Source: an uncultured Candidatus Saccharibacteria bacterium
GTDB taxonomy: Bacteria; Patescibacteriota; Minisyncoccia; Phycocordibacterales; DATDWN01
Assembly: GCA_964597675.1 (NCBI GenBank)
Contig: CAZQYV010000001.1
Coordinates: 81,644 to 145,643, forward strand
DNA: 64,000 nucleotides
Direction of reading: 5' to 3'
Part shown: positions 31,633 to 59,886 of the stretch, piece after piece
How the letters are laid out: the number at the start of each line of letters is the position of its first letter
Position numbering within the stretch: position 1 is the stretch's first letter
Program-made: the position numbers and the translations under genes
Notes under the pieces: generated by a model
Databases searched by the model: none
What the model was told of the DNA's origin: nothing
What the model saw: only the letters and a program-made list of their open reading frames with translations

Positions 31633-31660
31633 TTGACATATTGACCAAATAGTGTATAAT
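31633..31660 (+). promoter_or_regulatory. sigma70-like promoter (TTGACA, 16 nt spacer, TATAAT)
   Basis: ttgacatattgaccaaatagtgtataat followed by an aggagg RBS. Confidence 0.6.
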
Positions 31661-31677
31661 AGTGTTAGGAGGCCAGA

Positions 31678-31947
31678 GTGACTTGTAAAATTCTGGATGA
31701 ACCAACACTCGCGGAGTCGTTGGTAGAGAATAAACTCCCCACTATCAAGATCGGAGATAGAGGGGAAAGTGATTTGAGTCAGGCAGAGAAATTTGAACGT
31801 CTCTGCAATTTCCTTGATAAGGGAGAGGATGTGGTTGTTATGTTGTTCGGCGACACATGGTATCGCGGTGTCGTCGAGCAGGCTGCCCTGGCACGGGGGT
31901 ATGATGTACTCCATGCCAGGAGTGCCACCGAGTTGGTGGCGGCATGA
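31678..31947 (+). CDS. small GC-rich hypothetical protein (89 aa, GTG start)
   Basis: aggagg RBS 8 nt upstream; own promoter and terminator; GC about 50% versus about 36% in flanking DNA. Confidence 0.5.
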   Translation: MTCKILDEPTLAESLVENKLPTIKIGDRGESDLSQAEKFERLCNFLDKGEDVVVMLFGDTWYRGVVEQAALARGYDVLHARSATELVAA

Positions 31948-31952
31948 CGGTT

Positions 31953-31986
31953 GGCCGGGGAGAGATCCCCGGCCACTTTTCTTTTT
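31953..31986 (+). terminator. rho-independent terminator
   Basis: ggccggggagagatccccggcc followed by a T-run. Confidence 0.65.
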
Positions 31987-32023
31987 AGGAGAAAGTTGTA
32001 TTGTGTAGAAGGAGGTTAGAATT

Positions 32024-32302
32024 ATGGTTCAACACAATGATGCTGAGGATGATCCAAAAATCACTATTGAAATTGATTGTTTTGACATCCTATTAAATGC
32101 TTTTATTGTCGCAGTTGGTATGGTAATCCTTACATTTGCAATCAATTCTGTCTCGTGGTTACACACAATTGTTTTCAAAGGTAGAGATGCTAACTATGGG
32201 GCGATATTTAGTCTTTGTTTTCTAACTATTGCTCTGACCCAGTATTTAGCTGAATGGAATGTGATTCAAGAGATAAAGAAGCAACATGGTCGTGGCAAAT
32301 AG
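32024..32302 (+). CDS. small two-TM membrane protein (92 aa)
   Basis: gaaggagg RBS; two hydrophobic segments; hairpin terminator overlapping its 3' end. Confidence 0.5.
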   Translation: MVQHNDAEDDPKITIEIDCFDILLNAFIVAVGMVILTFAINSVSWLHTIVFKGRDANYGAIFSLCFLTIALTQYLAEWNVIQEIKKQHGRGK

Positions 32303-32340
32303 CCACGGCCTTTTATTTTGCCTTGAGGGGCACGATCATT

Positions 32341-32369
32341 TGACATTACTCCTGATTTTGTATAGTATA
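32341..32369 (+). promoter_or_regulatory. sigma70-like promoter for rpsS and the downstream S10-operon genes (TTGACA, 17 nt spacer, TAGTAT)
   Basis: ttgacattactcctgattttgtatagtat. Confidence 0.55.
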
Positions 32370-32803: not shown

Positions 32804-32812
32804 TTTATCCAT

Positions 32813-33253
32813 ATGGCAACAGCACACGCAACACTTTCAAACTTCCGACAATCACCACGCAAAATGCGCGTGGTTGCAAATCTTGTACGTGGCAAAAAAG
32901 TGTTGGATGCACTCACAAGTCTAGAGTTTACAGACAAGCGAGCATCAGGCCCGATCAAGACACTTATTGCAAGTGCTTTGGCAAATGCAAAGTCTCTGGA
33001 TATTCCAACAGAACATTTGATTATAAAAACAATCGAAGTCAATTCTGGTAAGATTATGTACCGACGTATTCCTGCTGCTCGGGGAAGTGCACATCCGATC
33101 CGCAAGCGAACATCACTTGTTCGTGTCGAGTTGGGCGAGGCAACAACAACAAAGAAGGTGAAAATTGCAAAAGAAAAGGCAATTGCCGCACCTAAAACAG
33201 AGACAAAGGCAAAGAAACCAGCTGTAAAAAAAGTAGCAAAGAAATCAGATTAA
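32813..33253 (+). CDS. rplV: 50S ribosomal protein L22
   Basis: L22 family. Confidence 0.9.
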   Translation: MATAHATLSNFRQSPRKMRVVANLVRGKKVLDALTSLEFTDKRASGPIKTLIASALANAKSLDIPTEHLIIKTIEVNSGKIMYRRIPAARGSAHPIRKRTSLVRVELGEATTTKKVKIAKEKAIAAPKTETKAKKPAVKKVAKKSD

Positions 33254-33289
33254 TTTTTCATTTCGATTTTTTAATTTTAAATTTTATTT

Positions 33290-33949
33290 ATGACTCATAC
33301 GGTACATCCATATTCACACCGACTAGGCATCATCAGAGATTGGAAATCTCGCTGGTTTGGCGTGAAAGGTAAATATCGAGATTTTCTAAAGAGTGATGTA
33401 TTGTTACGAGAATACTTGGAAAAGCGATTTCGTGGTCAGTACGTCAGTAGTATTGAAATGGAACGAAGTGAAAAGGTATTGCGCATCATTATTGAAACAT
33501 CACGACCAGGTATGATCATTGGCCGCAGTGGAGAAGGCGCAGTCAAACTTCGCGAGGATATTGTTGCTTTTATTGCAAAGAAAAAACTATCAACAGAAGG
33601 TGAAATAAAAATTGATATCAAAGAAGTCCGATCTCCAGAATCAAACGCTTCGATTGTAGCCCAAATGATTGCAGATGGTTTGGAAAAGCGAATGCCATTT
33701 CGCCGAGTGGTCAAGTCTGTTGTTGAAAAGGTTATGGCAAATCGTGATGTACAGGGTGTGAAAGTCGAGCTTTCTGGCCGACTAGGTGGTGCATCAATGG
33801 CACGACAAGAAAAAATGAAGCGTGGACGTATTCCACTTCAGACATTCCGAGCAGACGTTGATTTTGTTAAATATGAGGCACGTTTGCCATACGGTGGTAT
33901 AGGTATAAAGGTTTGGATATACCGCGGTGAGATCTTCAGTAAGAAGTAA
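33290..33949 (+). CDS. rpsC: 30S ribosomal protein S3
   Basis: KH domain and S3 C-terminal motifs. Confidence 0.95.
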   Translation: MTHTVHPYSHRLGIIRDWKSRWFGVKGKYRDFLKSDVLLREYLEKRFRGQYVSSIEMERSEKVLRIIIETSRPGMIIGRSGEGAVKLREDIVAFIAKKKLSTEGEIKIDIKEVRSPESNASIVAQMIADGLEKRMPFRRVVKSVVEKVMANRDVQGVKVELSGRLGGASMARQEKMKRGRIPLQTFRADVDFVKYEARLPYGGIGIKVWIYRGEIFSKK

Positions 33950-35275: not shown

Positions 35276-35377
35276 GAAAGTAAAATATTAAAAATCAAAA
35301 TGGAAAATTACCAGATAAAGTCAAAGAATACTAATTAGAATTTTTACTTTTGATTTTTCAATTTTAAATTTATTACC
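35276..35377. repeat. second copy of the about 90 nt palindromic intergenic element (about 85% identical to 29221-29314)
   Basis: aaaaatcaaaatggaaaattac...tttttacttttgatttttcaattttaaattta. Confidence 0.65.
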
Positions 35378-35593
35378 ATGCATATCAAAAAAGACGACAA
35401 AGTAAAAATACTGTCAGGAAAAGATAAGGGCAAAACTGGCTCGGTGGTTAAGTCATTTCCAAAAGAAAACAAAGTCATTGTTTCAGGTGTCAATGTAGTA
35501 AAGGCACACAAAAAAGCTCGCAAGAGTGGCGAAAAAGGTCAGATTATAGACAAGACAATGCCTATCCACGCATCGAATGTAAAGAAAGTGTAA
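35378..35593 (+). CDS. rplX: 50S ribosomal protein L24
   Basis: KOW motif, 71 aa. Confidence 0.9.
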   Translation: MHIKKDDKVKILSGKDKGKTGSVVKSFPKENKVIVSGVNVVKAHKKARKSGEKGQIIDKTMPIHASNVKKV

Positions 35594-36147: not shown

Positions 36148-36286
36148 TACCACCACAAGAGCCCCGAAAGGGGTTTTTGTTGACTTATGGTATAGATTGT
36201 TATATAAATCCGATAGATCCATACCCCACCACATATGTTCAGTTCATTCTGATATGTAGGATGAGGAGTATAGGAAGGAGTCCGAT

Positions 36287-36868
36287 ATGTTTGATATTAA
36301 ACTGTTTGTCACTTTGTTGGTATTTTGGGCGGTGATTATGCTGCCAAGATTCATCCGTAACCATTTCGACGATCGTCGCAGGATCAGACGAATGGCTCGG
36401 GAAATAGAGCTTATTGATCAGGCAAAAAAAATCGGTCCGATCCTCATTCAAAATATTGAAGGGGGAATTGTGGCTTTCTGTACTGCTCGTGATTTTTATC
36501 AAGCAGAGAAGATGGCACGGGGTACTGAGGTTTGGAAGCGTGTGAGGGTGGAAGTAATCCCAACCTTTACATTTGCATCAAATGAAGGTGTGAGGGTCGG
36601 TGCTCACACTGGAGTTATGGCAGATGCGGAACTAATCCTAGAAAGCATGATCAGGCGGTCAATCCTAATCTGCAAAGGAGAGCAAATTCCGAGAAAAGTA
36701 TTCAAATACCTCATTCACAAAAATGAGAGACTTCATGTCCCATTCTTGCCAGCGACCGATGATATAGATCGGTTCAAGCGAGAATTAAGGGATTACGGTC
36801 TAACTACGGTCGAACAAGCCGAAAATAACTTTCTGAAGGAGTGCTTGAATATTATTTGGAAGGGGTGA
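36287..36868 (+). CDS. GC-rich hypothetical protein (193 aa, N-terminal TM) inserted between rplE and rpsN with its own promoter and terminator
   Basis: Terminator gagccccgaaaggggttttt before it and acccggttgcagtggtgcaaccgggt after it; RBS ggaagga. Confidence 0.5.
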   Translation: MFDIKLFVTLLVFWAVIMLPRFIRNHFDDRRRIRRMAREIELIDQAKKIGPILIQNIEGGIVAFCTARDFYQAEKMARGTEVWKRVRVEVIPTFTFASNEGVRVGAHTGVMADAELILESMIRRSILICKGEQIPRKVFKYLIHKNERLHVPFLPATDDIDRFKRELRDYGLTTVEQAENNFLKECLNIIWKG

Positions 36869-36970
36869 TATGTTACCCGGTTGCAGTGGTGCAACCGGGT
36901 ATTTTGTTGACTTTTCTTGAGGGTTTTGCTATCCTATTGCGAGTCTTACACAGACTTATTTTATTTAGAT

Positions 36971-40826: not shown

Positions 40827-40835
40827 TGTTACTTC

Positions 40836-41885
40836 TTATTTATTATCCCAAAACCAGTACTGATTCTTCAGATTCTCACTCAGTCTATATGCGTTCGCAT
40901 GTGATAGAGCCCCAAGATATGATGCGAATGTTTGATTAAAACTTTCTTTTGAAATTATTCCTTTAGTATACGCATTGAATTTATCTCTATGTTTTCTCTC
41001 AATTCGTCTGAGTGTTTTCTTACGTATGAGTCTATGATACGGACGGAGAATATATCCCAGAAAATCAACACTTCCAGATGCTTTCAGTATTTCTACTTTG
41101 TCTGTATGAAGCCGTAATTTGAGACGATTTCCAAGGAACAGGATGATTGGTTTGATTAAATTTTCCAGATATTTTTTGTCGTTCGAGACGATAATAAAAT
41201 CATCGGTGTATCTGCCATAGTGCTCGACTTTCAGTTTTTGCTTCATATACTGATCAAACTCGTTCATATACATATTGGCAAAGAGTTGAGAGGTGAGGTT
41301 GCCAATTGGTACGCCTGTACGAGTAAAAAGGTTGGAATATCCACTCACAAAACTGTCCACAATTTCTCCAATGAGCCATATTACTTCTTTATCCTTTATC
41401 TTTCTTTGGATCAAGGAAAGAAGAATGGAATGATCGATACTGTCAAAGAATTTTCTCACGTCGCATTTGAGAACGTAGCACGCTCTTGTGTAATTTCTTG
41501 AAACTTTACGAATCATACTTTCTGCCACGTCTACTCCTTTGTGTGATCCTTTTTGGATACGACAGGAAAAAGAGGTGGCGATAAATGTCGGCTCAAACAG
41601 GGGATTCAAAATCTGGTAGACCGCATGATGAAGTACTCGGTCCCGAACTGTTGCCTTGTGGATGTGTCGGAGTTTTGGATCACAAATAAAAAAGTCAGTA
41701 TATCCACCGTGTCTGTAAGTCTTGTCCTTCAAATCTCTATGCAGTTGAAAGAGTTCCTGTTCAAGGTTTTTCTCAAACTTCAGAACGTCAGCCTTCTTTC
41801 CTTTGCCGTGTTTGAATTCTTCCCACGCCCAAAACAGGTTCTCTGGTTCTATAATTTTATTAAATAAATTTTTATATACTTTCAT
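40836..41885 (-). CDS. diversity-generating retroelement reverse transcriptase
   Basis: RT motifs including YTDDFII (YxDD) and the DGR-specific IGNLTSQ ([ILV]GxxxSQ) in place of the group II QGxxxSP; the start MKVYKNLFNKI aligns to DGR RT N-termini; the ORF track start at 41954 is probably too long. Confidence 0.8.
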   Translation of the reverse strand: MKVYKNLFNKIIEPENLFWAWEEFKHGKGKKADVLKFEKNLEQELFQLHRDLKDKTYRHGGYTDFFICDPKLRHIHKATVRDRVLHHAVYQILNPLFEPTFIATSFSCRIQKGSHKGVDVAESMIRKVSRNYTRACYVLKCDVRKFFDSIDHSILLSLIQRKIKDKEVIWLIGEIVDSFVSGYSNLFTRTGVPIGNLTSQLFANMYMNEFDQYMKQKLKVEHYGRYTDDFIIVSNDKKYLENLIKPIILFLGNRLKLRLHTDKVEILKASGSVDFLGYILRPYHRLIRKKTLRRIERKHRDKFNAYTKGIISKESFNQTFASYLGALSHANAYRLSENLKNQYWFWDNK

Positions 41886-42237
41886 GAATGATGCAGATAT
41901 ACCGATACTAAAGAAAACATACGAGCTGTACAAGCTCTTCCATGAATACCGCAAGGTAATTTCAAAAGCAAACCGATTTACTATCTATGAACGATGCGAA
42001 AACCTCATTATTGATCTCATTGAATGTTTTTTTGAAGCAGGATACGCCAAAACTGTAAATAAGGCAGTCATTTTGGATAGAGCAAGTGTTCGTCTAAATA
42101 GTTTGCGATTATTTGTTCGTCTGATGAAAGAAACGTATGCAATCGACAATAAAAAATATCTTGCGCTGCAAACAATTATAGATGAGATTGGGAGAATGCT
42201 TGGTGGTTGGATCAGATCAACCGGTCCTACCACTTAA
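41884..42237 (+). CDS. avd: DGR accessory variability determinant (Avd), four-helix-bundle family
   Basis: 117 aa; the C-terminal IDEIGRMLGGWIRS matches bAvd IAEVGRILGSWIAR; its start codon overlaps the RT start on the opposite strand. Confidence 0.75.
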   Translation: MNDADIPILKKTYELYKLFHEYRKVISKANRFTIYERCENLIIDLIECFFEAGYAKTVNKAVILDRASVRLNSLRLFVRLMKETYAIDNKKYLALQTIIDEIGRMLGGWIRSTGPTT

Positions 42238-42242
42238 ACAAA

Positions 42243-42268
42243 AGGTATCCGAATGGATACCTTTTGTG
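42243..42268. terminator. perfect palindromic bidirectional terminator (ends avd on + and the TR transcript on -)
   Basis: aaaaggtatcc-gaat-ggatacctttt. Confidence 0.65.
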
Positions 42269-42299
42269 ATGAAGGGGAGACTTCGGAACGAGACCGGAC

Positions 42300-42408
42300 G
42301 CGGTACCGTAGTTCGCATTGGCATTGTCGAACCAGTTCGTGTCGAACTTGACCTTGCCGTCGTTGAAGTTGAAGTACGGAGCGTGATCGAAGCGAACATC
42401 GGCATCCG
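42300..42408 (-). repeat. DGR template repeat (TR), Asn-codon rich, minus strand
   Basis: The reverse complement aligns to 43700-43800; over a clean core of about 75 nt every difference is an A in TR versus G in VR. Confidence 0.7.
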
Positions 42409-42724
42409 GAATTTGCCCTTGCTCATCCAGAGCACCAGAGCTTGAAAAAGTTTTCTGTTGGAAACAGATCTCAGTCTCACTCTTGAATTTAACTTGGTAG
42501 CACCCGCCATATAGGCTCAGTGGTCCACCTTAAACAAGGGCAAGCAGTATCTCCTTATCACTACACTCTTTTGGAAATCGTAATCTCCAAAACTCTGGTC
42601 GTTTCTCTTATAGAGGGTAAAGAGAAAGAGTTCGGCGACGGCAATCCATAGACGACCGTTCATGAGCCTAGACTCAAAGGAAGTGTACCAGAAAAGATAT
42701 AAATTAAGCAATATTTATGACCTA

Positions 42725-42753
42725 TTGACAAAAAAGCCATTTGGGTGTATAAT
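42725..42753 (+). promoter_or_regulatory. sigma70-like promoter of the DGR target gene (TTGACA, 17 nt spacer, TATAAT)
   Basis: ttgacaaaaaagccatttgggtgtataat. Confidence 0.6.
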
Positions 42754-42788
42754 ATATAGTGGAGGGGCTTTCTGACATTCACTGTTTT

Positions 42789-42835
42789 GAGACGAGCTTT
42801 TTGAGCCTTATTTTAGGACCTAAAAAGCTCGTCTC
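42789..42835 (+). promoter_or_regulatory. 14 bp stem-loop in the about 140 nt 5' UTR of the DGR target gene
   Basis: gagacgagcttttt...aaaaagctcgtctc. Confidence 0.4.
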
Positions 42836-42898
42836 ACAAGGACAAGTCGCAACAAAAGCCGGGGCGAATCTGGTAAATCAGGAAAGGGAGATAACGTC

Positions 42899-43834
42899 AT
42901 GACGACGATTACTCAAGCAACTTCCGGTCAGAAGAAACAGAATAGCCGTTTTCTCGAGGACGCCTTTCAGGCACTCAAAACGGAATTGGAAACCATGTTT
43001 GGTGAACTCGACACCGAGAACGCTCAACGATTCCTCGGTAACGGCGACGAATTCAAAGCCGATGTTCAGAAGGCAGCTCTCGACTCGTTCGGACGCCTGT
43101 CCATCTCGAATCAGTTCGCCAACGAAGAAGTGGAATCGACCTACGGCTACCTCTCGGGCTATCAGAAGCCGAAGGGATTGACCGAGCAGGCCAACCGCTT
43201 GCGTGAACTGTTCTCTGGTGCCGGTTTCGTCAACCTCGATCTGCAAGGCAGAATCGAGAAGGGTGAGATCGCACTGCCAGCATACGCCGAAGGTTGGTCC
43301 GTCATTCCCAACTGGATGAAGAATCCGGAGGCATGGGGCACCTACAACGAGGCACTGCAAAAAGTCCTTGACGCAATCAAGAAGACTCGCAACGGTGCCT
43401 TCTACAACTACCGCGAGGGTCAGATCGGTCCCGAGCGTCTGCGCCAAACGAAGCGTGCGGAGAAATTCTTCCGTGAGCTTTCGGAAGCACAAGGCAATCC
43501 GGATCTCTTAATCGTCCCGACCCAGTTCGGCATCCGCCATCGCGGCCGTTCGGTTCGCCGATCCCGCGAGGTTATGCTGGACAATGGCAACGAGTTCGGA
43601 CTCGGCGCATTCGCAATCGGCATCATGATCCTCGCCCATCCCGAGAGACTGAAAAACGTGGATGATCTGTGGATCGATTGTGCCGGAGACGAATATGCTC
43701 CGGGTGCCGGTGTTCGCTTCGATCGCGCTCCGTACTTCAACTTCAACGACGGCGGGGTCGGGTTCGACGCGGGGTGGACTGGCAGCGCGAGCGGCCGCTA
43801 TGGGTCTTCCTCCGCCTTCCTTCCGCAGCAGTGA
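42899..43834 (+). CDS. DGR target protein (311 aa), GC-rich, with the variable repeat at its C-terminus (C-type-lectin/FGE-like fold suspected); no signal peptide
   Basis: The C-terminus GAGVRFDRAPYFNFNDGGVGFDAGW matches the TR-encoded DADVRFDHAPYFNFNDGKVKFDTNW; ggaaagggag RBS. Confidence 0.7.
   Translation: MTTITQATSGQKKQNSRFLEDAFQALKTELETMFGELDTENAQRFLGNGDEFKADVQKAALDSFGRLSISNQFANEEVESTYGYLSGYQKPKGLTEQANRLRELFSGAGFVNLDLQGRIEKGEIALPAYAEGWSVIPNWMKNPEAWGTYNEALQKVLDAIKKTRNGAFYNYREGQIGPERLRQTKRAEKFFRELSEAQGNPDLLIVPTQFGIRHRGRSVRRSREVMLDNGNEFGLGAFAIGIMILAHPERLKNVDDLWIDCAGDEYAPGAGVRFDRAPYFNFNDGGVGFDAGWTGSASGRYGSSSAFLPQQ
43700..43800 (+). repeat. DGR variable repeat (VR)
   Basis: See the TR entry; the 3' third has diverged with non-adenine changes as well. 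Confidence 0.65.
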
Positions 43835-44027
43835 TCGCTTGCTCCTCGAATTCTTGAGTCTTTTGATTTCTTTTCTCTTGATTCTTGAATTCGCCGGCAA
43901 AATTCGGGCTACTCACAACGTGTGGGTGGCCCGATTTTCTTTTGTATAAAATTAATTATAGGGATTTTTTTGATAGATTTGCTATACTACTTGGTATAGC
44001 ATTTGTTTTATATTTTAACCGTATTTT

Positions 44028-44615
44028 ATGTCTCCTCATACATTTGTGTTTATCGGACGTTCTGGTTGTGGTAAAGGTACTCAGGCGGGTTTGCTCATGC
44101 AGCAGATTGGAGAGAAGAAAGTCGGTGAACCAATTTTTTATCTTGAAACAGGTCAGAAATTTCGCGATTTTATTGGAGGCGCTGGATACACAAACACTCT
44201 CGCACGCACCATCCAAGAAGCCGGAGGACTCCAGCCATCTTTTTTGGCGGTTTGGATGTGGTCAAATATCTTTATTGACAAATTGACTGATAAGGATCAT
44301 TTGGTTATTGATGGTACTCCACGCAAACTTGGTGAGGCAATTATTTTCACCGAAGCAATGAAGTTTTACAATCGAAGACCGATTGTTATATATATCAATG
44401 TATCTCGTGAGTGGTCAGAGGCACGGCTATCAGATCGGCATCGGTCTGACGATATGAGTGAAGTCATAAAAAATCGCCTTGATTGGTTTGACACGGATGT
44501 CTTTCCGGCGGTAGAGTACTTCAAGACAAACCCCGATGTCCAGTTTCTCGATATAAACGGTGAACGAGCGATTGAGGAGATTCAGGATGATATTTTAGAA
44601 AAATTAAAAATTTAA
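44028..44615 (+). CDS. adk: adenylate kinase
   Basis: P-loop GRSGCGKGTQ; normal position after secY, displaced here by the DGR. Confidence 0.8.
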   Translation: MSPHTFVFIGRSGCGKGTQAGLLMQQIGEKKVGEPIFYLETGQKFRDFIGGAGYTNTLARTIQEAGGLQPSFLAVWMWSNIFIDKLTDKDHLVIDGTPRKLGEAIIFTEAMKFYNRRPIVIYINVSREWSEARLSDRHRSDDMSEVIKNRLDWFDTDVFPAVEYFKTNPDVQFLDINGERAIEEIQDDILEKLKI

Positions 44616-44706
44616 AAATCAAAAAGGAAAATTAATATACATTTTTACTTTTTACTTTTGATTTTTCATTTTTAAATTGGTGAAAATCTAGGTTAAATGA
44701 TTATCT
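44616..44706. repeat. third, more diverged copy of the palindromic intergenic element
   Basis: aaaaatcaaaaaggaaaattaat...ttttacttttgatttttcatttttaaatt. Confidence 0.5.
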
Positions 44707-46107: not shown

Positions 46108-46136
46108 TTGACATGCAACCTATTTAGGTGTATAAT
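46108..46136 (+). promoter_or_regulatory. sigma70-like promoter (TTGACA, 17 nt spacer, TATAAT)
   Basis: ttgacatgcaacctatttaggtgtataat. Confidence 0.6.
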
Positions 46137-46149
46137 AGAATAGGAGGGT

Positions 46150-46299
46150 ATGATGACAACAGGCCTTATTCTTGGCATTTTAGTCATAGTGGTTACCATT
46201 ATGACTATGGTGGTCGTTATAAGATTGTGCATGAATTACGCTAGGCGTGAAAAGGCGACAAAGGAAGCATTCAAAGAGAGGTTTCCTCCGTCCGAGTAG
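46150..46299 (+). CDS. 49-aa single-TM hydrophobic peptide with its own promoter, RBS and terminator
   Basis: aggaggg RBS; MMTTGLILGILVIVVTIMTMVVVIRLCMNYARREK...; terminator cacccccgacgagtagtcgggggtg plus T-run at 46303-46335. Confidence 0.5.
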   Translation: MMTTGLILGILVIVVTIMTMVVVIRLCMNYARREKATKEAFKERFPPSE

Positions 46300-46611
46300 A
46301 CCCACCCCCGACGAGTAGTCGGGGGTGTTCGTTTTTACACATTACTTATTTCATACCCGCAAGTGTTTCTCTATTATATCGAGATGTATAATATTGGTAG
46401 GATTGTTTCATATTTTCTATCTAACAATTTTTTAGGGAGTCTCATATTTACATATCCCGATGAGCATTGTCGCAAGACAGAGTTCACTCAGATATGTGTG
46501 CGGACACCCACCTGGCATTATGCTAGGGGAATATGAACACAATCCTATTAAAGAACCCCGTGTCGTACGGGATTTTTTAATTTTTTCTTTCGCTTTTATC
46601 ATTCTCACGGT

Positions 46612-50503: not shown

Positions 50504-50758
50504 TCATTGCTTGTGGACTCCTTTCTTCGGTAGTCTTTTCAGGAGACCTTCGATTTCAGCGATGTTCCTCACGTGTGGCAGTGTCTTGCTGAGAAAATCC
50601 CTCTCAACTTCTTCAACCGCCGTGAGTGTTCGAGGTGGAATCATGCAGTGGGCGCAGTTAAGTTCTGCCAACCGCAATACTTTTTTGTGTACTTCTGGGA
50701 GTCGCGACTCCCTTCTTTTTATTGCGACGAACTTTTTGATGTCTGTTCGGACACTCAT
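50504..50758 (-). CDS. GC-rich hypothetical protein (84 aa) with its own promoter, RBS and terminator
   Basis: Minus-strand promoter ttgacaagaaagtgatttgggtgtataat at 50821-50849; RBS aggaaaggag. Confidence 0.5.
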   Translation of the reverse strand: MSVRTDIKKFVAIKRRESRLPEVHKKVLRLAELNCAHCMIPPRTLTAVEEVERDFLSKTLPHVRNIAEIEGLLKRLPKKGVHKQ

Positions 50759-50852
50759 CAAAGAACTCCTTTCCTAACTCTCGGTTCACCAATTTCCTCT
50801 AGGATGTTATTTACAATTGTATTATACACCCAAATCACTTTCTTGTCAACCA

Positions 50853-50920
50853 TTTTTCGAGTACAAAAAAGTCCTATTTCTAGGTGAAATTTGGGGGTAG
50901 TGGTGGCAGTTCGGCCTTCG
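50853..50920 (+). repeat. about 65 nt direct repeat, copy 1; copy 2 is at 51660-51727; the pair flanks the NYN-domain gene
   Basis: tttttcgagtacaaaaaag[t/c]cctatttctaggtg...ggggtagtgg[t/c]ggcagttcg. Confidence 0.6.
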
Positions 50921-51090
50921 CTATCTTGTCGATAAAATAAAAAGTAAAGCCCGCACCGAGTGCGAACTGTATTATTGTGAGCGGGGTATAAAATTTAAGC
51001 ATAAAAATGACGTCGACGGCCTAAATACAAAATACATCCAAATTAAGTATAGTTGTTGTTTAACATGAGCTTTTTGATATTATTATCATA

Positions 51091-51519: not shown

Positions 51520-51775
51520 AAAGAACAAAAGCTAAAATTTATTATTTGAAAGATAAGAAAAATACACTTACATAAAAAAAGACCCCCAATGAAGACGAGC
51601 TTCACAAGGGTTCTTTTCGTAGTGATATTAAAAGTATATCAAACTGTTCGTGAATGTCAAATAAATATTTTTCGAGTACAAAAAAGCCCTATTTCTAGGT
51701 GTTGTTTAGGGGTAGTGGCGGCAGTTCGCCCTTTGCCTTAAAATTTTCTCGTCAGAAAATTTAATATTGTGGGAG

Positions 51776-52090: not shown

Positions 52091-52193
52091 ATACAGTCCC
52101 TCGAATCCCTCGGGACACTCGACTCGTAAGTACCATCTTGTTTTTAGGTGGTTTACCACGAGCGAGTTCCAAGTAATCTTGGGACGAGTCGAG

Positions 52194-52588
52194 TGGAAGT
52201 GGCGGCATCGAAGCCGCGTCCATAGAAGGAACTAAAATGTGTCTACAGCGTGTAGTTTGTTTTATATTTAATCATCTATACTATGTAACAAACAAAATGT
52301 ATAAGTGACGATTCTCAATGTTTCAAACGATGAGTCGAGACACACCCATGTTCTAGCTAAAAATATATCAATCAACCTCCCGTATTAGCGTCAGGGAAGC
52401 GACCGTCTCCTTGGCGTCGGCTTATGCTCGAGCGAAAGAGAAAGCAAAGTCATTCATACTAAAGTATGGTGATGTTGCTTTTGAAGCTACAGTATTTGCA
52501 TGTAGGCTTTTCTGTACCGTTTTAGGAGAGCACAGAACTCCGCGTTGCGCAGATCAATTCTTTTCTATGTCAAAACCTGTCACCCCCG
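52194..52588 (-). ncRNA. ssrA: tmRNA (ssrA), one-piece, about 395 nt
   Basis: Immediately downstream of smpB; the 5' GGGGGTG pairs with the 3' CACTTCC-A giving a G3-U70 wobble and an A73 discriminator; T-arm GCGGC-TTCGAT-GCCGC; candidate tag frame from about nt 88 ending ...NDFAFSFARA-stop; the exact tag start is unresolved. Confidence 0.6.
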
Positions 52589-52694: not shown

Positions 52695-53138
52695 TCAACG
52701 AACTTTGTGCTCTCGGTCTATATCGCGATCGCTCTGTCGTTTCTTGAGTGTCTCTCGTTTATCAAACTTCTTTTTACCACGGACAATAGCAATATCTACC
52801 TTGATCTTTGTACCCTTATTATACACCGAAATAGGTACAATTGTCAAGCCCTTTGTTTTCTCTGCTGTCTCAAGATCGAGGATCTCATTTTTCTTGAGTA
52901 GCAGTCGGCGATTACGATATGGGTCATAGTCAATTGGGGTGTTGTTTTCTTGGTAGGGTGGTATGAACATGTTGGTAACAAAGGCCTCTGTACCACGGAC
53001 TGTGACTCGGGCACCTTCGAGTGACCCCTGACTTCCCTTGAGGGATTTTACTTCATGACCAAAAAGCTCTATTCCTGCGGGATAGGTTTCCATTATTTCG
53101 TAATTCATGCCGGTCTTTCGGTTTGTAATGAGTGCCAT
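52695..53138 (-). CDS. smpB: SsrA-binding protein SmpB
   Basis: SmpB family, 147 aa. Confidence 0.9.
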   Translation of the reverse strand: MALITNRKTGMNYEIMETYPAGIELFGHEVKSLKGSQGSLEGARVTVRGTEAFVTNMFIPPYQENNTPIDYDPYRNRRLLLKKNEILDLETAEKTKGLTIVPISVYNKGTKIKVDIAIVRGKKKFDKRETLKKRQSDRDIDREHKVR

Positions 53139-55420: not shown

Positions 55421-55503
55421 AAAATAAAAACAGTACCTCGGTGCTGTTTTTATTTTCTTGCATCTATTGTGGAGCGTGTGTATGATAGGGAAAGGAGAGT
55501 TTC

Positions 55504-55731
55504 ATGAGCACTAGTTCTATTTGTGACAGAATAAAGTATCTGCCTGAGGAGGGCGGATTTGTCCCGTGTGAGGGCAGATTGACTGCTCAGTTAATTGAGA
55601 ATGAGTGTGGTCAATTTTCAACACACCGAGTTTGTCCGAAGTGCGAAAAAGATTTCGGAGAGGTTGATTTGTTTTCATCTCCGCTTGACCTTACATCATC
55701 ACACAAACAACAACTGCTTAACTTTCGGTAA
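55504..55731 (+). CDS. small Cys-rich (zinc-ribbon-like) protein, 75 aa, as a self-contained cassette
   Basis: C..C...C..C spacing; RBS gggaaaggagag; promoter cttgca-18-tatgat; terminator ggccactctacggagtggcc. Confidence 0.45.
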   Translation: MSTSSICDRIKYLPEEGGFVPCEGRLTAQLIENECGQFSTHRVCPKCEKDFGEVDLFSSPLDLTSSHKQQLLNFR

Positions 55732-55771
55732 ACTTCTTTTCACGGGCCACTCTACGGAGTGGCCTCAATTT

Positions 55772-56029
55772 TTATTTACCACCCCATCTCCAATGAGGAC
55801 GTTCACCTTTTGCGTAGCAGATGATAAGAAGGAAAATGGTATCGATAATAAAAGGCAATGCAAAACTTGCAAAAAAATCACTAGGAGAGTTGGCGTATTT
55901 TTCAGAGAGCATTGCAAATTGAACAATAGGTGTCACATATAAAAGTGTCACCGCCCAACCCTGCCACGACACTGGGTACCAACCCCACCCGTACATTTTT
56001 GCTTTAAACCATAATTTGTTATTTTTCAT
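55772..56029 (-). CDS. small Trp-rich membrane protein
   Basis: ORF with two hydrophobic segments. Confidence 0.35.
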   Translation of the reverse strand: MKNNKLWFKAKMYGWGWYPVSWQGWAVTLLYVTPIVQFAMLSEKYANSPSDFFASFALPFIIDTIFLLIICYAKGERPHWRWGGK

Positions 56030-56067: not shown

Positions 56068-56141
56068 GCGCGTGTAGCTCAGTTGGTTAGAGCTCGGAGC
56101 TTATACCTCCGTGGCCGGGGGTTCGAGTCCCTCCACGCGCA
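56068..56141 (+). tRNA. tRNA-Ile with anticodon UAU (reads AUA)
   Basis: Cloverleaf: acceptor GCGCGTG/CACGCGC, D stem GCTC/GAGC, anticodon stem CGGAG/CTCCG with loop CTTATAC, T arm GGGGG-TTCGAGT-CCCTC. Confidence 0.7.
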
Positions 56142-56145
56142 CAAG

Positions 56146-56970
56146 TTATCTAGGAAACTCTTCTACCAATTCATTTGAATCATAGAATTCTCGAGCAAGT
56201 GAGCCAAAACTATATGTATGGTCACCGATTTTTATTTCAGCACCACCTGACTGTGGGTCAGAATGTGGACGCGATCCATTGAAGCCGATATTGTATAGTG
56301 TTGCTAAAATATTAGACCTACCAGAAATATCAAAACCAGCATTTTTCCACTGTGTCATGATCTGTTTCAAATAGAGCCCGGCATATAGGTAACTGTAGTA
56401 GTGGTCGTGCTGGTCTGTCATACGGGTGAATCGCTCTTGTTTAATGTCTGCGGTCTTGAAATCAAGCATGTGTTCATATGTTGGTCCGAGGTAGTATGCT
56501 GATGATCTGTCTTTCAGATTATTTTCTATTTCAATCGCTGTCTCTTCTTTGGTGCCCATCACACCCCATGAAAACTGTGTTTGGCTACCAAGTATTTTCA
56601 ATGGCTCAAAAAACTTTTTGTACGATTCGCGCTCCGTATAAAAAAGACGAAGTTGTTCGACAACAAGTTGGGTGATAATCAGGCGAGGGGACACCCCTGC
56701 AGTCGCGCTCGCTCGGTAAATCACTGCTTTGTCTTTCAATATAGCAGCTCGTATTGTCTGCCATTCTGGCAGTGTCGCCCAGTACATGTCACTAGGTGAA
56801 TTGGTTACAGTTTCAGGTGTTTTTCCGCCATCGAGGAAGTTTTGACGTTGGGTATCAATCACTCCGCTTGTGTTTGTTAGTCCATATTTCACAGCAAAAA
56901 ATCCGGCTGTTAGTCCAAAGCCGATGAAAGCAAATATATAAACTAATATAGTAAATATTTTTTTTGGCAT
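56146..56970 (-). CDS. hypothetical membrane-anchored protein (274 aa)
   Basis: N-terminal TM; no family recognised. Confidence 0.45.
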   Translation of the reverse strand: MPKKIFTILVYIFAFIGFGLTAGFFAVKYGLTNTSGVIDTQRQNFLDGGKTPETVTNSPSDMYWATLPEWQTIRAAILKDKAVIYRASATAGVSPRLIITQLVVEQLRLFYTERESYKKFFEPLKILGSQTQFSWGVMGTKEETAIEIENNLKDRSSAYYLGPTYEHMLDFKTADIKQERFTRMTDQHDHYYSYLYAGLYLKQIMTQWKNAGFDISGRSNILATLYNIGFNGSRPHSDPQSGGAEIKIGDHTYSFGSLAREFYDSNELVEEFPR

Positions 56971-57013
56971 GAGATTTTTCTATTGTGTGTTCCAACATAA
57001 CACGACAGAGACA

Positions 57014-59170
57014 TTATTCAAAGTGTACAGAATTATTTTTGTCAGAAATCCGTTGAAGCAGGGTGGGGTGTCTTGCAAGTGCTGGGTCTGTGTCAATTAT
57101 CTTTGTTGCTTCTGTTCGGGCTGCCTCTACCATTTTAATATTTTTGAGGGCTTCCATAGCAAGGTCAGAGATGCCCCATTGCTTTCTGCCATACAGATCA
57201 CCAGCACCGCGTTGAGCAAGATCAAATTCAGCCAGTTCAAACCCATTTTTGGCTGTGATAAGAGCTTTCAATCTGTCACGAGTTTTTTGCCCGTTACTTT
57301 CAGGGAAAACGTAGCAATACGCTTGGTGGTTCGAGCGGATAACTCGACCACGGAGCTGGTGTAGTTGGGAGAGACCAAATCGCTCCGCCCCTTCAATAAT
57401 AATCATAGTGGCATTTGGTACATTGACGCCCACTTCGACCACAGATGTCGCGACCAAAATATCTATTTTTTTCGAAGCAAAGTCATGCATCACTTTTTCT
57501 TTTTCCACAGGTGTCATTTTGCTGTGAACAATGCCAATATGCCACGATTGGAATATATTTTTTTTCAGTCTCTCCGCTTCCATGGTCACAGATTTTGCAA
57601 TAACTGCCATTTCTTTGGTTGGATTAGGCTCATCAATACGTGGACAGATAACATACAGTTGTCTACCATTTTGAAGTTCTTGTTTTATTGCTTCATATAT
57701 TGCGTCACGCTCGGCCGGTACAATAATTTTGGTAATAATTGGTTTTCGGCCTGTTGGCATTTGGTCGAGGAGAGTCAGATCAAGGTCTCCGTAGAGAGTG
57801 AGGGCTAGTGTACGGGGTATAGGAGTTGCAGTCATAGAAAGTAAATGGGGGACAAGTCCTGATTTTTGAGCAAGTTTTTGCCTCTGGGCAGTGCCAAAAC
57901 GGTGTTGTTCATCGATTACCACAAAGGCGAGATGTTTGAACGTGACTGATTTTTGTATGAGCGCATGGGTACCAATCAGTATTGGCACTTCACCGTTTGC
58001 AACCCATTTTAGTAGTTGTGCTCGAGAGATATGTGTCGGCAAATTTGGATTACTTTTTGATGGGAATATTTGGCATCCACTTCCTGTGATGAGGCCAACT
58101 TTAATCGGTAGGTGCCGGAAGTATTGAATAAAGTTTTCATAATGTTGTTTTGCTAGTATTTCTGTTGGTGCCATGTAGGCAGTTTGTAGATGACCAAAAT
58201 CCTTGCCTTGTGGTCGAGCAATGACAGTGGCAAATGCACAGGTGGCTGCTACGGCGGTTTTGCCCGAGCCTACATCGCCCTCAAGTAGTCGCGACATAGG
58301 TTGCCCTTTTTTAAAATCCGCAACAATAGTTTCTATTGCATGTTTTTGTGCGTCGGTTGGTGTAAAAGGGAAACGGGACATAAAATCTGTAATATCTTTT
58401 TTGCTTGTTTCAATAACAAATGATTTTTCTGTCTGCCACAGTTTTCTATCCTTTTGTTTTTGGAGTTGAATAAAAAATATTTCTTCGAATGCAAATCTTT
58501 TTCGGGCGGACAATGCATCAGATTCTTTTTTTGGAGCATGTATCCAGATCAGCGCCGTCTTGAGTGTGGGGAGATTATATATATGTAAAATATCCTCTGG
58601 TATTTCATCCTGTACCATATCGAGCACTCCCTGCGACATTATTTTTTGTATAGCGTGGTACAACCAATTCGACGTAATACCTCTACTTTCAGGATAGACC
58701 GGGTAGAGCGAATGTTCTTCGCCATCACTACCAAAGAGCGACTGACCTACAGCGATTGGCATGTCTCGGACAACTTCTATTTTCGGGTTACTCATGTATC
58801 TCTCGCCACGACGCTCGGATATTTTTCCTTCTGCACGCACCGGTTGCCCATCATGAATCATTTTGGCGATGTATGGTTGGTTAAACCAAACACATTTTAT
58901 TTTGCCAGTTTCGTCTGTAATCGTTCCTTCAGACATAGGAATCTTTTTAACATAGGCTTTGCTTGTTTTGAGTCCAGATATTGTGCCGAAAACTACCGCC
59001 TCCTCGCCAGTACCGAGTGATTCCACAGATTTGACTTGGTTTGTATTGCCGTATCGTGTGGGGAAGTGGTAGAGCACATCGTATATTGTAGCGATACCCA
59101 GTTTTGATAGGGCTTTTTTCTGTATCGGAGTCAGTCGAAAGTGGTCCGTAAGTGGTGAGTTTGGTCGCAT
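57014..59170 (-). CDS. recG: ATP-dependent DNA helicase RecG
   Basis: Wedge domain and helicase motifs GDVGSGKT, DEQHRFG; start probably at MRPNSPL. Confidence 0.85.
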   Translation of the reverse strand: MRPNSPLTDHFRLTPIQKKALSKLGIATIYDVLYHFPTRYGNTNQVKSVESLGTGEEAVVFGTISGLKTSKAYVKKIPMSEGTITDETGKIKCVWFNQPYIAKMIHDGQPVRAEGKISERRGERYMSNPKIEVVRDMPIAVGQSLFGSDGEEHSLYPVYPESRGITSNWLYHAIQKIMSQGVLDMVQDEIPEDILHIYNLPTLKTALIWIHAPKKESDALSARKRFAFEEIFFIQLQKQKDRKLWQTEKSFVIETSKKDITDFMSRFPFTPTDAQKHAIETIVADFKKGQPMSRLLEGDVGSGKTAVAATCAFATVIARPQGKDFGHLQTAYMAPTEILAKQHYENFIQYFRHLPIKVGLITGSGCQIFPSKSNPNLPTHISRAQLLKWVANGEVPILIGTHALIQKSVTFKHLAFVVIDEQHRFGTAQRQKLAQKSGLVPHLLSMTATPIPRTLALTLYGDLDLTLLDQMPTGRKPIITKIIVPAERDAIYEAIKQELQNGRQLYVICPRIDEPNPTKEMAVIAKSVTMEAERLKKNIFQSWHIGIVHSKMTPVEKEKVMHDFASKKIDILVATSVVEVGVNVPNATMIIIEGAERFGLSQLHQLRGRVIRSNHQAYCYVFPESNGQKTRDRLKALITAKNGFELAEFDLAQRGAGDLYGRKQWGISDLAMEALKNIKMVEAARTEATKIIDTDPALARHPTLLQRISDKNNSVHFE

Positions 59171-59340
59171 ATTTCTATTGTACCATGAAGGATCTTCTTT
59201 TTTGATTTTGCTTTCATGAAATACGAGACATGTGTATATCAATGTGTGTCAATGGAGGCACTTGACAGAAAGGGGGTGAGTATGGTAGGGTGCGGGTGCT
59301 GTTCTTTACAGTAAATCCAAAGTTAGAGGAGGGGACAAAG

Positions 59341-59886
59341 ATGAAGATCTTTTCCCGTTTTTCCATTTTCGTGCTCATCCTTGTGGTGAGCATCATGATT
59401 GTTCCAGCATCGGCGGCGACCTTGTGGTCGCAGCAGTGGGACTCGACCCCGGCATTTCCGGGGACGTTCAATCGGATAGAAATCGCAATGGGTGCTGGTG
59501 GTGGCCAGTTTGGCGGGCCTCTCTCGGGCTTTACGACAGGCTCCGGATGGGTAACCACTTTTGATCCTTATTTTGTGACGGCTACGTCGGCGACCACAAT
59601 GAACGGGTCACCCGGTACCGATAATCTCTGGGATATCAATTTCGGCACGCCTTTGAATCAGCCCCTCGCTGTTCAACTCAAGTTCTATATGGACACAGAG
59701 TTGAAGTCCACCGACACGTGGGGATACGATGGTTTGGGACAGGGCAATAACCCTGTCGGGAACTGGCACCACCTCTCCAATGATGGGTTCCAAGGTGTAC
59801 CTGAGCCAAGCACCTACGCGCTGATGGGCGCAGGTCTCGCGGCGCTGAGTTTCATTCGCCGTCGTCGGCAAACAGCCGGCAAATAG
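59341..59886 (+). CDS. PEP-CTERM sorting-signal protein, GC-rich
   Basis: Signal peptide, Gly-rich body, C-terminal VPEPSTYALMGAGLAALSFIRRRRQ; RBS agaggagggg. Confidence 0.65.
   Translation: MKIFSRFSIFVLILVVSIMIVPASAATLWSQQWDSTPAFPGTFNRIEIAMGAGGGQFGGPLSGFTTGSGWVTTFDPYFVTATSATTMNGSPGTDNLWDINFGTPLNQPLAVQLKFYMDTELKSTDTWGYDGLGQGNNPVGNWHHLSNDGFQGVPEPSTYALMGAGLAALSFIRRRRQTAGK

Follow-up and report, generated by a model that had tools for sequence, protein, structure and literature searches.

A 64-kb stretch of contig CAZQYV010000001.1 (the window) was analysed, in which a first-pass annotation had described a family of GC-rich, self-contained gene cassettes with a near-identical promoter. The eight open reading frames (ORFs) concerned are all present, at 31678, 32024, 36287, 42899, 46150, 50504 (minus strand), 55504 and 59341, and are called c1 to c8 in this order. 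The window is cellular chromosome with a GC content of 40.8%, and its host is a Zambryskibacteria-like bacterium of the Candidate Phyla Radiation (CPR). The property that all eight units have in common is a strong Shine-Dalgarno sequence (SD), in a genome whose other genes largely lack one. On balance we think it probable, though far from assured, that they represent a distinct expression class of a Patescibacteria (Paceibacterota) lineage and not a homologous family of imported GC-rich cassettes. The feature itself is real, but a better description is a class of SD-led genes that stand alone, occur across the lineage and often are GC-rich at equilibrium, in CPR genomes whose other genes are SD-less.

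Shine-Dalgarno sequences and composition of the eight units

Inspection of the 60 nt upstream of every gene start revealed a strong SD in all eight units and native genes without one. An initial screen that took the best SD among many in-frame starts was too noisy and was replaced by curated starts and a composition-matched null, with SD strength expressed as the free energy (dG) of the duplex with the anti-SD and a threshold of -7 kcal/mol or lower. This threshold is reached by 7/8 units and by 3/63 native genes (Fisher p = 7e-7), with mean dG values of -9.6 and -0.5 kcal/mol, respectively. The eighth unit, c5, reaches it when the second ATG is taken as the start, so that the strong SD claimed in the first-pass annotation is found in 8/8 units. 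A blind scan outside native genes for an SD followed by a start codon and an ORF of 25 aa or more returned the eight units and two other items, an internal start and an ORF antisense to the template of the diversity-generating retroelement (DGR) described below. In all eight units the motif lies approximately 4 to 8 nt from the start codon, which is canonical spacing, and it is conserved in orthologues. Because this spacing is kept in orthologues with saturated synonymous sites, it argues that the SDs are functional and that anti-SD function persists in at least this sub-lineage.

Native leaders, by contrast, are AU-rich, with G depleted at positions -14 to -4. In 12/63 native genes a -10-like hexamer ends 4 to 9 nt before the start, compared to 3.8 expected per 6-nt bin; this three-fold excess bears out the earlier remark that many native genes look leaderless. 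These two side remarks, on strong SDs and on leaderless-like native genes, are the real signal, and GC content is a secondary correlate. At the level of sequence, two gene architectures can be shown in one genome. The default gene is AT-rich (GC content at third codon positions, GC3, approximately 0.3) and SD-less, with an AU-rich, G-poor leader or a leaderless-like start. The minority units have a 5' untranslated region (5'UTR) of 20 to 150 nt and a strong SD; most have an intrinsic terminator and a sigma-70-type promoter as well, and their synonymous sites are often rich in GC and poor in A. The units code for accessory proteins that bear no relation to each other, namely a C-type-lectin binder diversified by the DGR, a secreted PEP-CTERM protein, a zinc-ribbon-like protein, a hypervariable protein of 89 aa, and small membrane peptides. 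Only c8 has a named domain, PEP-CTERM, and the word "family" does not apply.

The units had been reported at 45% to 60% GC against surroundings of about 36%. The window genes average 41.2% GC (standard deviation 4.3), and only c1, c4 and c8 are clear outliers at more than 2 standard deviations above this mean; one further unit lies at approximately +1.5, three are ordinary, and c2 is below average (values per gene in Table 1). At third codon positions, the eight units are higher overall than native genes (GC3 0.339 +/- 0.056; Mann-Whitney p = 9e-5), with five outliers (c1, c4, c5, c6, and c8) and ordinary or low values for c2, c3 and c7. The per-gene check of GC and codon usage thus supports an atypical subset, but not GC-richness as a trait of all eight. 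Within the GC-rich set, codon preference is opposite to that of the translation genes: TCA is used at 0.03 versus 0.49, ACA at 0.22 versus 0.62, and CGA at 0.12 versus 0.54. The genes for EF-Tu, EF-G and ribosomal proteins favour codons ending in A, and the GC-rich set shuns precisely those. High-expression codon bias as the cause of the elevated GC3 was therefore rejected, since the opposite preference excludes an ordinary expression-linked bias.

The same association is seen in related genomes. In four loci for which the gene calls of the source were used (L085, L086, L089, and L093), native genes are SD-less and the few SD-led genes are the GC3-rich ones. Across a lineage-wide set of 1,230 ORFs from AT-rich Paceibacterota loci, window excluded, 21% of SD-positive ORFs are GC3 outliers, compared to 3.4% of the rest (odds ratio 7.6, p = 8e-9). 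The composition-matched null, consisting of internal in-frame starts, indicates that SD calls are not inflated by composition (2.6% versus 3.3% per start). There are 18 SD-positive ORFs among the GC3 outliers where 4.3 are expected (p = 1e-7), while the non-outlier ORFs have 67 SDs versus 87 expected, i.e., no SD signal. Of 36 near-consensus promoters in the related loci, 10 have an SD-led ORF within the next 220 nt, against 3.5% of random positions (p = 3e-7), and the ORFs behind those 10 promoters have GC3 values of 0.49 to 0.86, above the locus medians. Across the lineage, then, GC-rich codons go together with an SD and a consensus promoter.

The best view of how the composition has been retained comes from c7 and c8. 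Another species, L086 (GCA_030917185.1), has a matching neighbourhood of smpB, ftsH, a 75-aa gene, recG and a PEP-CTERM gene. Its c7 orthologue, at the same place 3' of ftsH, has the SD AAAGGAGAGG and a GC3 of 0.55, and its c8 orthologue is led by CAGGAGGG and has 55% GC and a GC3 of 0.66 in a genome of 40.7% GC. Given orthologues in the same neighbourhood of another species, c7 and c8 look vertically inherited. Between the window and L086, four-fold sites of c8 are 0.31 identical versus 0.28 expected, much as in FtsH (0.34 versus 0.30), and protein identity is 0.76 for c8 and 0.75 for RecG. The four-fold sites of c8 nevertheless have A3 (A at the third position) = 0.13 and G+C = 0.65, compared to 0.28 to 0.41 in neighbouring genes. 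Since the GC-rich composition survives saturation, it is maintained in c8 and is not the residue of a recent import, i.e., unameliorated foreign DNA. In L085, too, the PEP-CTERM gene (GC3 0.74) adjoins a glycosyltransferase gene at 40.5% GC. Neither c7 nor c8 thus has the marks of recent transfer: the neighbourhood is kept, composition is unchanged at saturated four-fold sites, and all homologues with a name are from CPR. GC-rich synonymous sites held at saturation in AT-rich genomes warn against equating compositional outliers with recent transfers.

The c8 protein scores 30.3 bits against PF07589 (cut-off 20.7) and 29.9 bits against TIGR02595 (cut-off 16), and has the PEP motif, transmembrane helix and basic tail of a PEP-CTERM protein, with the C-terminal end VPEPSTYALMGAGLAALSFIRRRRQ. 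No exosortase of the EpsH/XrtA family was seen among the scanned genes of the window. The c8 protein has 4 homologues, the sole organism-named one being from the Patescibacteria group. The c6 protein has 8 homologues among 1.84 billion representative proteins and c1 one other database relative; c1, c2, c3, c5 and c6 are species-level orphans. The c3 gene is identical in strain L001. The c5 gene is not annotated publicly, and neither c5 nor c7 has an exact sequence match in the protein collection.

Promoters, the DGR locus and turnover of the units

Exact TTGACA-N16-18-TATAAT promoters occur five times in the window (31633 plus, 42725 plus, 46108 plus, 50849 minus, and 52847 minus), compared to 0.10 expected; the fifth had been missed by the first-pass annotation, which assigned each unit a consensus promoter of its own. 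A sigma-70-type promoter is present in 7/8 units, with an exact consensus in four and variants in c3, c7 and c8; for c2, no recognisable promoter was found in the 48 nt downstream of the c1 terminator. The spacers of the sites at 42725, 46108, 50849 and 52847, a type that can be written ATTTNGGTG-TATAAT, have 9 to 13 of 16 positions in common, including 8 or 9 of the last 9. As a null we used 630 pairs of near-consensus promoters from related genomes, which have a mean of 5.05/16 (standard deviation 2.07, maximum 12); values of 11 or more are reached by 0.6% of pairs and 13 by none. The spacer at 31633 has 3 to 6 of 16 positions in common with these four and lies outside the group, so that of the four promoters previously called near-identical, three (42725, 46108, and 50849) remain and are joined by 52847.

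That fifth site lies within smpB, 230 nt upstream of ssrA, and is encoded in the conserved SmpB peptide LTIVPISVYN, with the general form LTIVP(I/L)xVYN. The corresponding string TTGACAATnGTnCC...GT(G/A)TATAAT is also found in the smpB genes of nine or more other Paceibacterota, some with genomes of 52% to 56% GC, which points to an ssrA promoter conserved inside a coding sequence. By eye, the c4 promoter is nearer to the other window promoters than to those of orthologous DGR targets (approximately 7/17). Searching for TTGACA-N9-TTTNGGTGTATAAT gave at least 120 matches each in metagenome and viral collections, on contigs of 26% to 64% GC from many habitats; among the matches listed, none is from the same species and one is from a distant CPR bacterium. 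The motif is so widespread that it is not lineage-specific.

Hairpin terminators, also claimed for every unit, follow 7/8: c1, c2, c3, c4, c5 and c7 have a hairpin with T-run by scan and that of c8 was read by eye, while c6 has only a long-loop candidate at 50477-50431. The boundaries of the units have no common repeat, no flanking homology and no terminal repeats. Given this lack, and given that c3, c7 and c8 use other promoter types and c2 none, we do not uphold the suggestion of a mobile promoter module. Directly upstream of the c6 promoter lies a 70-nt repeat with a second copy (89% identical) at 51667-51736, itself directly upstream of a promoter at 51660-51633 (minus strand; TTGACA-16-TATACT). 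The latter is followed by approximately 60 nt with a hairpin and T-run, possibly a small RNA. There is a weak likeness between the repeat and the 3' end of the neighbouring transfer-messenger RNA (tmRNA) gene, and the repeat might be an old integration scar; the likeness is too weak for the copies to be adopted as att sites.

The c4 gene is the target of a DGR (40828-43977). Its variable repeat (VR) lies in a C-terminal C-type-lectin/FGE-like fold, as expected for a DGR target, and pairs with a template repeat (TR) on the opposite strand. Over the first approximately 80 nt all TR/VR mismatches are TR-A to VR-G, and the last approximately 50 nt have 24 non-A mismatches, giving 17/41 mismatches at A overall; the element may be an old, decaying copy or an atypical working one. 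There is no Avd-like ORF between TR and the reverse transcriptase (RT) gene, and the 82-aa ORF at 41985-42233 (minus strand) has no NCBIfam match of note, while the homologous loci L089 and L091 carry bAvd. With RT, TR/VR and a target like c4, the locus resembles other CPR DGRs, from which it differs in having no recognisable Avd and a partly decayed VR. When the TR was aligned to the whole window only the c4 VR was matched, and c8 was accordingly rejected as a second target. More than 1,835 homologues of c4 were found, and the named ones are Nomurabacteria, Zambryskibacteria, Parcubacteria or Patescibacteria group. DGR targets in eight other loci have 49% to 61% GC compared to 36% to 53% for their flanks. 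In L089, L091 and L093, RT and Avd have 34% to 44% GC and the target 56% to 59%, and these targets have a TTGACA...TATACT promoter and the SD AAAGGGAG or AAAGGAG. The 5'UTR of c4 (42754-42898, plus strand) contains a long hairpin, GAGACGAGCTTTTT...AAAAAGCTCGTCTC, and a block, GCCGCAACAAAAGCCGGGGCGAATCTGG, both kept in L089 and L093 (approximately 7840-8000 in each). It matches no Rfam family, and may be a cis-regulatory leader. We know of no earlier description of target genes of this DGR family lying 7 to 21 GC points above their host loci next to AT-rich RT and Avd genes. Nor, to our knowledge, have the conserved promoter and SD of the targets in L089, L091 and L093, or the structured 5'UTR in the window, L089 and L093, been described before.

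A strain represented by a 12-kb ENA contig (L001, 95% to 97.5% identical) has 39 bp between secY and adk, compared to the 3,150-bp DGR here. The DGR insertion replaces the secY terminator and there is no target-site duplication. Recent-transfer marks are therefore partly present for c4, namely presence or absence between strains and unsaturated four-fold sites (0.42 to 0.49 identical to homologues versus 0.29 to 0.30 expected), although its homologues too are from CPR. Spread of the cassette among CPR genomes fits these unsaturated sites. Between the window and L001, the body of c1, a gene for a small cytoplasmic protein within the S10 operon, is unalignable, while its promoter, SD, first 13 and last 4 codons and terminator are nearly identical. 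Three c1 alleles are seen, with amino acid identities of 61% and approximately 35% and flanks 95% to 98% identical (counterparts at L001:1818-2084 and L002:382-645), a pattern typical of diversifying selection or of recombinational exchange of alleles. Recent turnover was observed only in the DGR and c1. For the c5 and c6 loci, the contigs located through ndk, NYN and IF3 were either identical sequence from the source sample or too short for comparison.

The units sit at the rplB/rpsS, rplE/rpsN and secY/adk junctions and 3' of ndk, ftsH and recG. Across 80 Paceibacterota loci, the first three junctions range from less than 100 bp to several kb, and the rplB/rpsS inserts read carry unrelated genes (for an IS200-like transposase, diacylglycerol kinase, pilin-like proteins and a GIY-YIG protein). 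Ribosomal-operon junctions are insertion hot spots across the lineage.

Coordinates and surroundings

Table 1. Features of the eight units, the DGR and associated elements (window coordinates; dG, duplex free energy to the anti-SD in kcal/mol).
Feature	Position	Strand	Description
95-nt element	29216-29330		L3/L4
c1 promoter	31633..31660	+	TTGACA-N16-TATAAT, 12/12; conserved in strains L001-L003
c1 SD	31667..31672	+	AGGAGG; dG -10.2
c1	31678..31947	+	89-aa orphan, hypervariable among strains; GC 50.7%, GC3 0.52
c1 intrinsic terminator	31952..31985	+	10-bp stem, 8 GC pairs, T-run
c2 SD	32009..32015	+	AAGGAGG; dG -13.4
c2	32024..32302	+	92-aa predicted membrane protein, AT-rich; GC 35.8%, GC3 0.30; 100% identical in L001-L003
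c2 terminator	32288..32320	+	rpsS restart promoter TTGACA-17-TAGTAT at 32340-32368
95-nt element, partial	33236-33290		Before S3
95-nt element	35279-35393		L14/L24
c3 promoter	36180..36208	+	TTGACT-N17-TATAAA; immediately past rplE terminator
c3 SD	36272..36280	+	AGGAAGGAG
c3	36287..36868	+	193-aa orphan, hydrophobic N-terminus, rplE/rpsN junction; GC 43.3%, GC3 0.44
c3 terminator	36874..36906	+	rpsN restart promoter TTGACT-17-TATCCT at 36907-36935
DGR RT	40836..41954	-	GC 37.6%; Pfam RVT_1 4.7e-24; PADLOC RT 7.9e-51
DGR TR	42281..42410	-	Pairs with VR 43699-43828 (+)
c4 promoter	42725..42753	+	TTGACA-N17-TATAAT, spacer with ATTTGGGTG
c4 5'UTR hairpin	42789..42835	+	Conserved; fold z = -3.1
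c4 SD	42883..42890	+	AAAGGGAG; conserved in orthologues
c4 (DGR target)	42899..43834	+	VR 43699-43828; C-terminal C-type-lectin fold; GC 56.6%, GC3 0.67
c4 terminator	43904..43944	+	14-bp stem
95-nt element	44605-44707		adk/map
c5 promoter	46108..46136	+	TTGACA-N17-TATAAT, with ATTTAGGTG
c5 SD	46142..46148	+	AGGAGGG
c5	46150..46299	+	48/49-aa single-pass membrane peptide; GC 42.7%, GC3 0.52
c5 terminator	46303..46337	+	
c6	50504..50758	-	84-aa basic protein; GC 47.5%, GC3 0.51
c6 SD	50766..50772	-	AAAGGAG
c6 promoter	50821..50849	-	TTGACA-N17-TATAAT; 26/29 positions as in c4 promoter
70-nt repeat	50852..50921	-	Adjoins c6 promoter
ssrA	52191-52587	-	tmRNA
smpB	52695-53138	-	
Fifth consensus promoter	52818..52847	-	TTGACA-N18-TATAAT
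c7 promoter	55458..55486	+	TTGCAT-N17-TATGAT
c7 SD	55491..55499	+	AAAGGAGAG
c7	55504..55732	+	75-aa Cys-rich (zinc-ribbon-like) protein, 3' of ftsH; GC 42.4%, GC3 0.38
c7 terminator	55744..55775	+	
c8 promoter	59262..59291	+	TTGACA-N18-TAGGGT with TGn before -10; conserved in L086
c8 SD	59325..59334	+	AGAGGAGGGG
c8	59341..59886	+	181-aa secreted PEP-CTERM protein; GC 54.9%, GC3 0.63
c8 terminator	59923..59950	+	Read by eye; bidirectional with GT2 gene

SecY of the window is 78% to 80% identical to that of Candidatus Zambryskibacteria metagenome-assembled genomes (MAGs), and uL30, whose absence is a CPR hallmark, is missing from the S10/spc gene run. The gene order is RecJ, rpsL-rpsG, three large paralogous ORFs, fusA, two uncharacterised ORFs, tuf, rpsJ and the S10/spc ribosomal-protein genes to secY; the DGR; adk, map, ndk, an RNase J-like gene, rplT, rpmI, infC, NYN and GIY-YIG genes, ssrA, smpB and ftsH; and tRNA-Ile, recG, the PEP-CTERM gene, the glycosyltransferase (GT2) gene and two tRNA-Ser genes. 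A phage origin was rejected, since a megablast comparison of 25 kb with 50,697 phage records gave no match and PHROGs matches were to cellular genes such as RecJ, EF-G, EF-Tu, FtsH and a helicase.

Several further features of the window deserve mention. An intercistronic, AT-rich element of ~95 nt occurs at several places on the plus strand (Table 1). It contains an inverted repeat, GAAAAATCAAAA/TTTTGATTTTTC, and terminates in ...ATTTA(A/T)TACC ATG, and it may serve native genes as an SD-independent initiation element or as a processing site. Between rplB and c1, at 31277-31621 (plus strand), a TTGACA-17-TATACT promoter is followed by approximately 300 nt without a credible ORF and then by a hairpin terminator. 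The RNA folds at -111 kcal/mol (z = -5.35 versus shuffled), is 95% to 98% conserved among sister strains and matches no Rfam family, making it a candidate structured non-coding RNA. The rpsJ-rplC spacer (27650-28600) has tandem repeats of approximately 306 to 339 nt in a locally GC-rich patch, with a TTGACA-18-TATACT promoter at 28169 and a terminator at 28324-28347, and looks like a further small ORF-less transcription unit. The str operon is interrupted twice, between rpsG and fusA (12649-20173, plus strand) by ORFs of 1077, 921 and 470 aa that are paralogous and have N-terminal DNA in common, and between fusA and tuf (22454-25711, plus strand) by ORFs of 982 and 99 aa. The str-interrupting ORFs have no Pfam domain and, like native genes, are AT-rich and SD-less. 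ARAGORN predicts a tRNA-Ile with anticodon TAT at 56068-56142 (plus strand) and a tRNA-Ser with anticodon ACT at 61114-61201 (minus strand), both of which are anticodons uncommon in bacteria.

Competing explanations and known systems

How might such a class work? Recruitment of the minority mRNAs by SD/anti-SD pairing, and of the bulk by SD-independent or leaderless initiation, would provide two initiation channels. A GC-rich, structured mRNA might be unable to use the AU-rich default route and so need an SD, and promoter and terminator would insulate each unit from the operon that it interrupts. The promoter type common to c4, c5, c6 and ssrA may reflect tuning to, or short-patch copying of, the strongest native form, and would not be a travelling module. 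The GC-rich codons may be kept in place by a biased process specific to single genes, or by selection acting on the structure or stability of the mRNA. For the turnover seen in DGR presence and c1 alleles, the exchange partners appear to be other Patescibacteria. Several points weigh against a distinct expression class. The ordinary GC content of c2, c3 and c7 means that GC-richness is not universal in it, and a requirement of GC-rich genes for an SD can account for only part of the pattern. No 16S rRNA gene is present in the window or in 343 fetched loci; if the 16S rRNA of the organism had no CCUCC anti-SD, as reported for part of the Parcubacteria, the SD-dependent mechanism would fail and the purine-rich motif would act otherwise. 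The unsaturated sites of c4 are such that horizontal spread alone could explain its retained composition. Starts in the related loci came from a crude ORF rule, which makes the lineage-wide figures approximate, and the window is 64 kb of genome, with all eight units in its second half.

The proposal that the units are foreign cassettes, repeatedly and recently acquired from a GC-richer, SD-using host or partner or its phages and still carrying the signals of the donor, seems unlikely to us. In its favour are the codon usage of c1, c4, c6 and c8, opposite to that of native translation genes, and the strain-level changes, i.e., absence of the DGR with c4 from a strain with 95% to 97.5% identical flanks and replacement of the c1 body. 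Junctions of variable length that hold transposase-like and other unrelated inserts, and a synonymous divergence of c4 from its homologues below that of host genes from theirs, also speak for it. However, an ameliorating import would differ from c7 and c8, which occur in a matching neighbourhood elsewhere with saturated four-fold sites and unchanged GC-richness. The RT is AT-rich and its target GC-rich, here and in other genomes, so the DGR is not uniformly foreign, and three of the eight units (c2, c3, and c7) are not GC-rich at all. A homologue search for taxonomic affinity had been proposed; the named matches of c4 and c8 are all Patescibacteria, the remainder are unnamed metagenome proteins, and c1, c2, c3, c5 and c6 are orphans. 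These matches give no sign of the suggested GC-rich donor or partner organism. What stands of repeated acquisition are the discrete, self-contained units, the atypical subset, and the recent gain or loss of the DGR; c7 and c8, saturated yet GC-rich, do not fit. An artefact, be it chimeric assembly, MAG contamination or chance ORFs, is very improbable. The source is metagenome-assembled and two units have no exact match in the protein collection, but the arrangements recur in ENA ERZ27247322, Logan SRR12762304 and SRR8449812, GCA_020049755.1 and other species, each unit has its elements in register from promoter through SD and start to terminator, and c6 and c4 have 8 and more than 1,800 homologues, respectively.

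Two further explanations concern the signals rather than the genes. A single mobile or duplicating promoter module would make the promoter similarity one of descent, e.g., if the ssrA promoter within smpB had been copied by gene conversion or short-patch duplication. The spacers of c4, c5, c6 and the smpB-internal site far exceed the null mean, the c4 promoter is much nearer that of c6 than those of orthologous DGR targets, and the 70-nt repeat adjoins both the c6 promoter and a second one 800 bp away; the smpB-internal version, coding-constrained and conserved across the phylum, is a possible source copy. We nonetheless doubt such a module and consider it improbable, because the similarity ends at the -35 and just beyond the -10 without flanking homology or terminal repeats, the promoter at the second 70-nt copy differs in sequence, c1, c3, c7 and c8 use other promoters and c2 none, and the motif is not specific to the lineage; convergence on the optimum of one RNA polymerase or regulator fits equally. 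In Bacillus, STAB-SD elements act as 5' mRNA stabilisers. By analogy, a 5' SD-like stabiliser, structured GC-rich RNA and a terminator hairpin could shield a few mRNAs from RNase J/Y-type decay, and the window does contain an RNase J-like beta-CASP gene (47018-48394). This explanation, which we rate as quite unlikely, is in line with 5'UTRs in 8/8 units, terminator hairpins in 7/8, the conserved 5' hairpin of c4, and composition maintained at saturation. It sits poorly with a motif that in 8/8 units is at SD spacing from the start codon and not at the transcript 5' end, and with c2, c3 and c7 not being GC-rich. Moreover, a stabiliser of this kind also needs a functional anti-SD, making it a variant of the expression class that we favour and not an alternative to it.

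A bolder extension of that expression class, which we put forward as a speculation that is considerably more likely to be wrong than right, is that Paceibacterota, and perhaps other SD-poor CPR, translate most of the genome without SD pairing and have a conserved regulon of surface and accessory genes (DGR-diversified binders, PEP-CTERM proteins, and small membrane peptides) on a separate SD channel, each as an insulated promoter-UTR-SD-ORF-terminator unit with GC-rich, A-poor codons actively maintained. If so, GC-rich mRNAs would be invisible to the AU-rich default route or unusually stable, and the surface repertoire could be under switch-like control, e.g., through a subpopulation of ribosomes, in the manner of bS21 in Bacteroidia. 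CPR bacteria are mostly uncultured and very little is known of their gene regulation. Sequence alone could suffice to recognise stand-alone genes as a discrete, conserved class, by a strong SD where the rest of the genome has none, usually accompanied by a consensus promoter and terminator and often by GC-rich codons. Such a rule would flag accessory and surface genes with a likely role in host attachment, including DGR targets and PEP-CTERM proteins. It would also improve gene calling (2/8 units lack an exact sequence in the public protein collection) and make anti-SD function testable in lineages reported without an anti-SD.

Among known systems, phage morons, described by Hendrix and colleagues, are autonomous extra genes of lambdoid prophages with their own sigma-70 promoter and factor-independent terminator. 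The units resemble them as single genes of odd composition within conserved operons, accessory or surface-related in role and patchy among relatives; the moron anatomy is complete in c1, c3, c4, c5, c7 and c8 and partial in c6 (terminator doubtful) and c2 (no promoter). The units differ in sitting within chromosomal ribosomal-protein and housekeeping operons, next to rplB, rpsS, rplE, rpsN, secY, adk, ndk, ftsH and recG, with no prophage and no phage genes nearby. In addition, several of them occupy the same neighbourhood across species, and an SD contrast with the neighbours is not part of the moron concept. Integron cassettes, which are mostly promoterless and attC-terminated and lie beside an integrase, are similar as small, unrelated single-gene units gathered at defined sites; here there is no common attC-type repeat at the unit boundaries and no integrase among the scanned genes.

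Genomes in which leaderless, non-SD, SD-led and atypical genes are mixed are familiar from the gene classes of GeneMarkS-2 (PMC6028130). Atypical composition is usually read as horizontal transfer, whereas here SD, consensus promoter and GC-rich codons co-occur and the composition of c8 is held at saturation. For Parcubacteria, the CCTCCT motif is reported in only 48% of 16S genes, with SD helices inferred to be absent in the rest (Tsurumaki et al. 2022, PMC9297842). This concerns the same broad lineage and is consistent with the SD-less native genes of the window; the study covers rRNA and ribosomal proteins, and its relevant passages make no mention of an SD-led minority, its composition or its promoters. 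In Bacteroidia, ribosomes are SD-blind because the anti-SD is sequestered by bS21, bS18 and bS6, and the few genes that do have an SD (rpsU and prfB) make up a specialised regulon, which implies a second route of initiation (PMC7797042, PMC9976891, PMC13000453, PMC6847099). Both systems have bulk genes that are SD-less with an A/U-rich upstream context and a handful of genes with strong, conserved SDs. The SD genes of Bacteroidia are translation-related and autoregulatory, while those described here are accessory or surface genes, GC-rich, separately transcribed and from another phylum. By comparison of these features, the units are closest to phage morons in anatomy and closest to the SD-blind Bacteroidia in logic.

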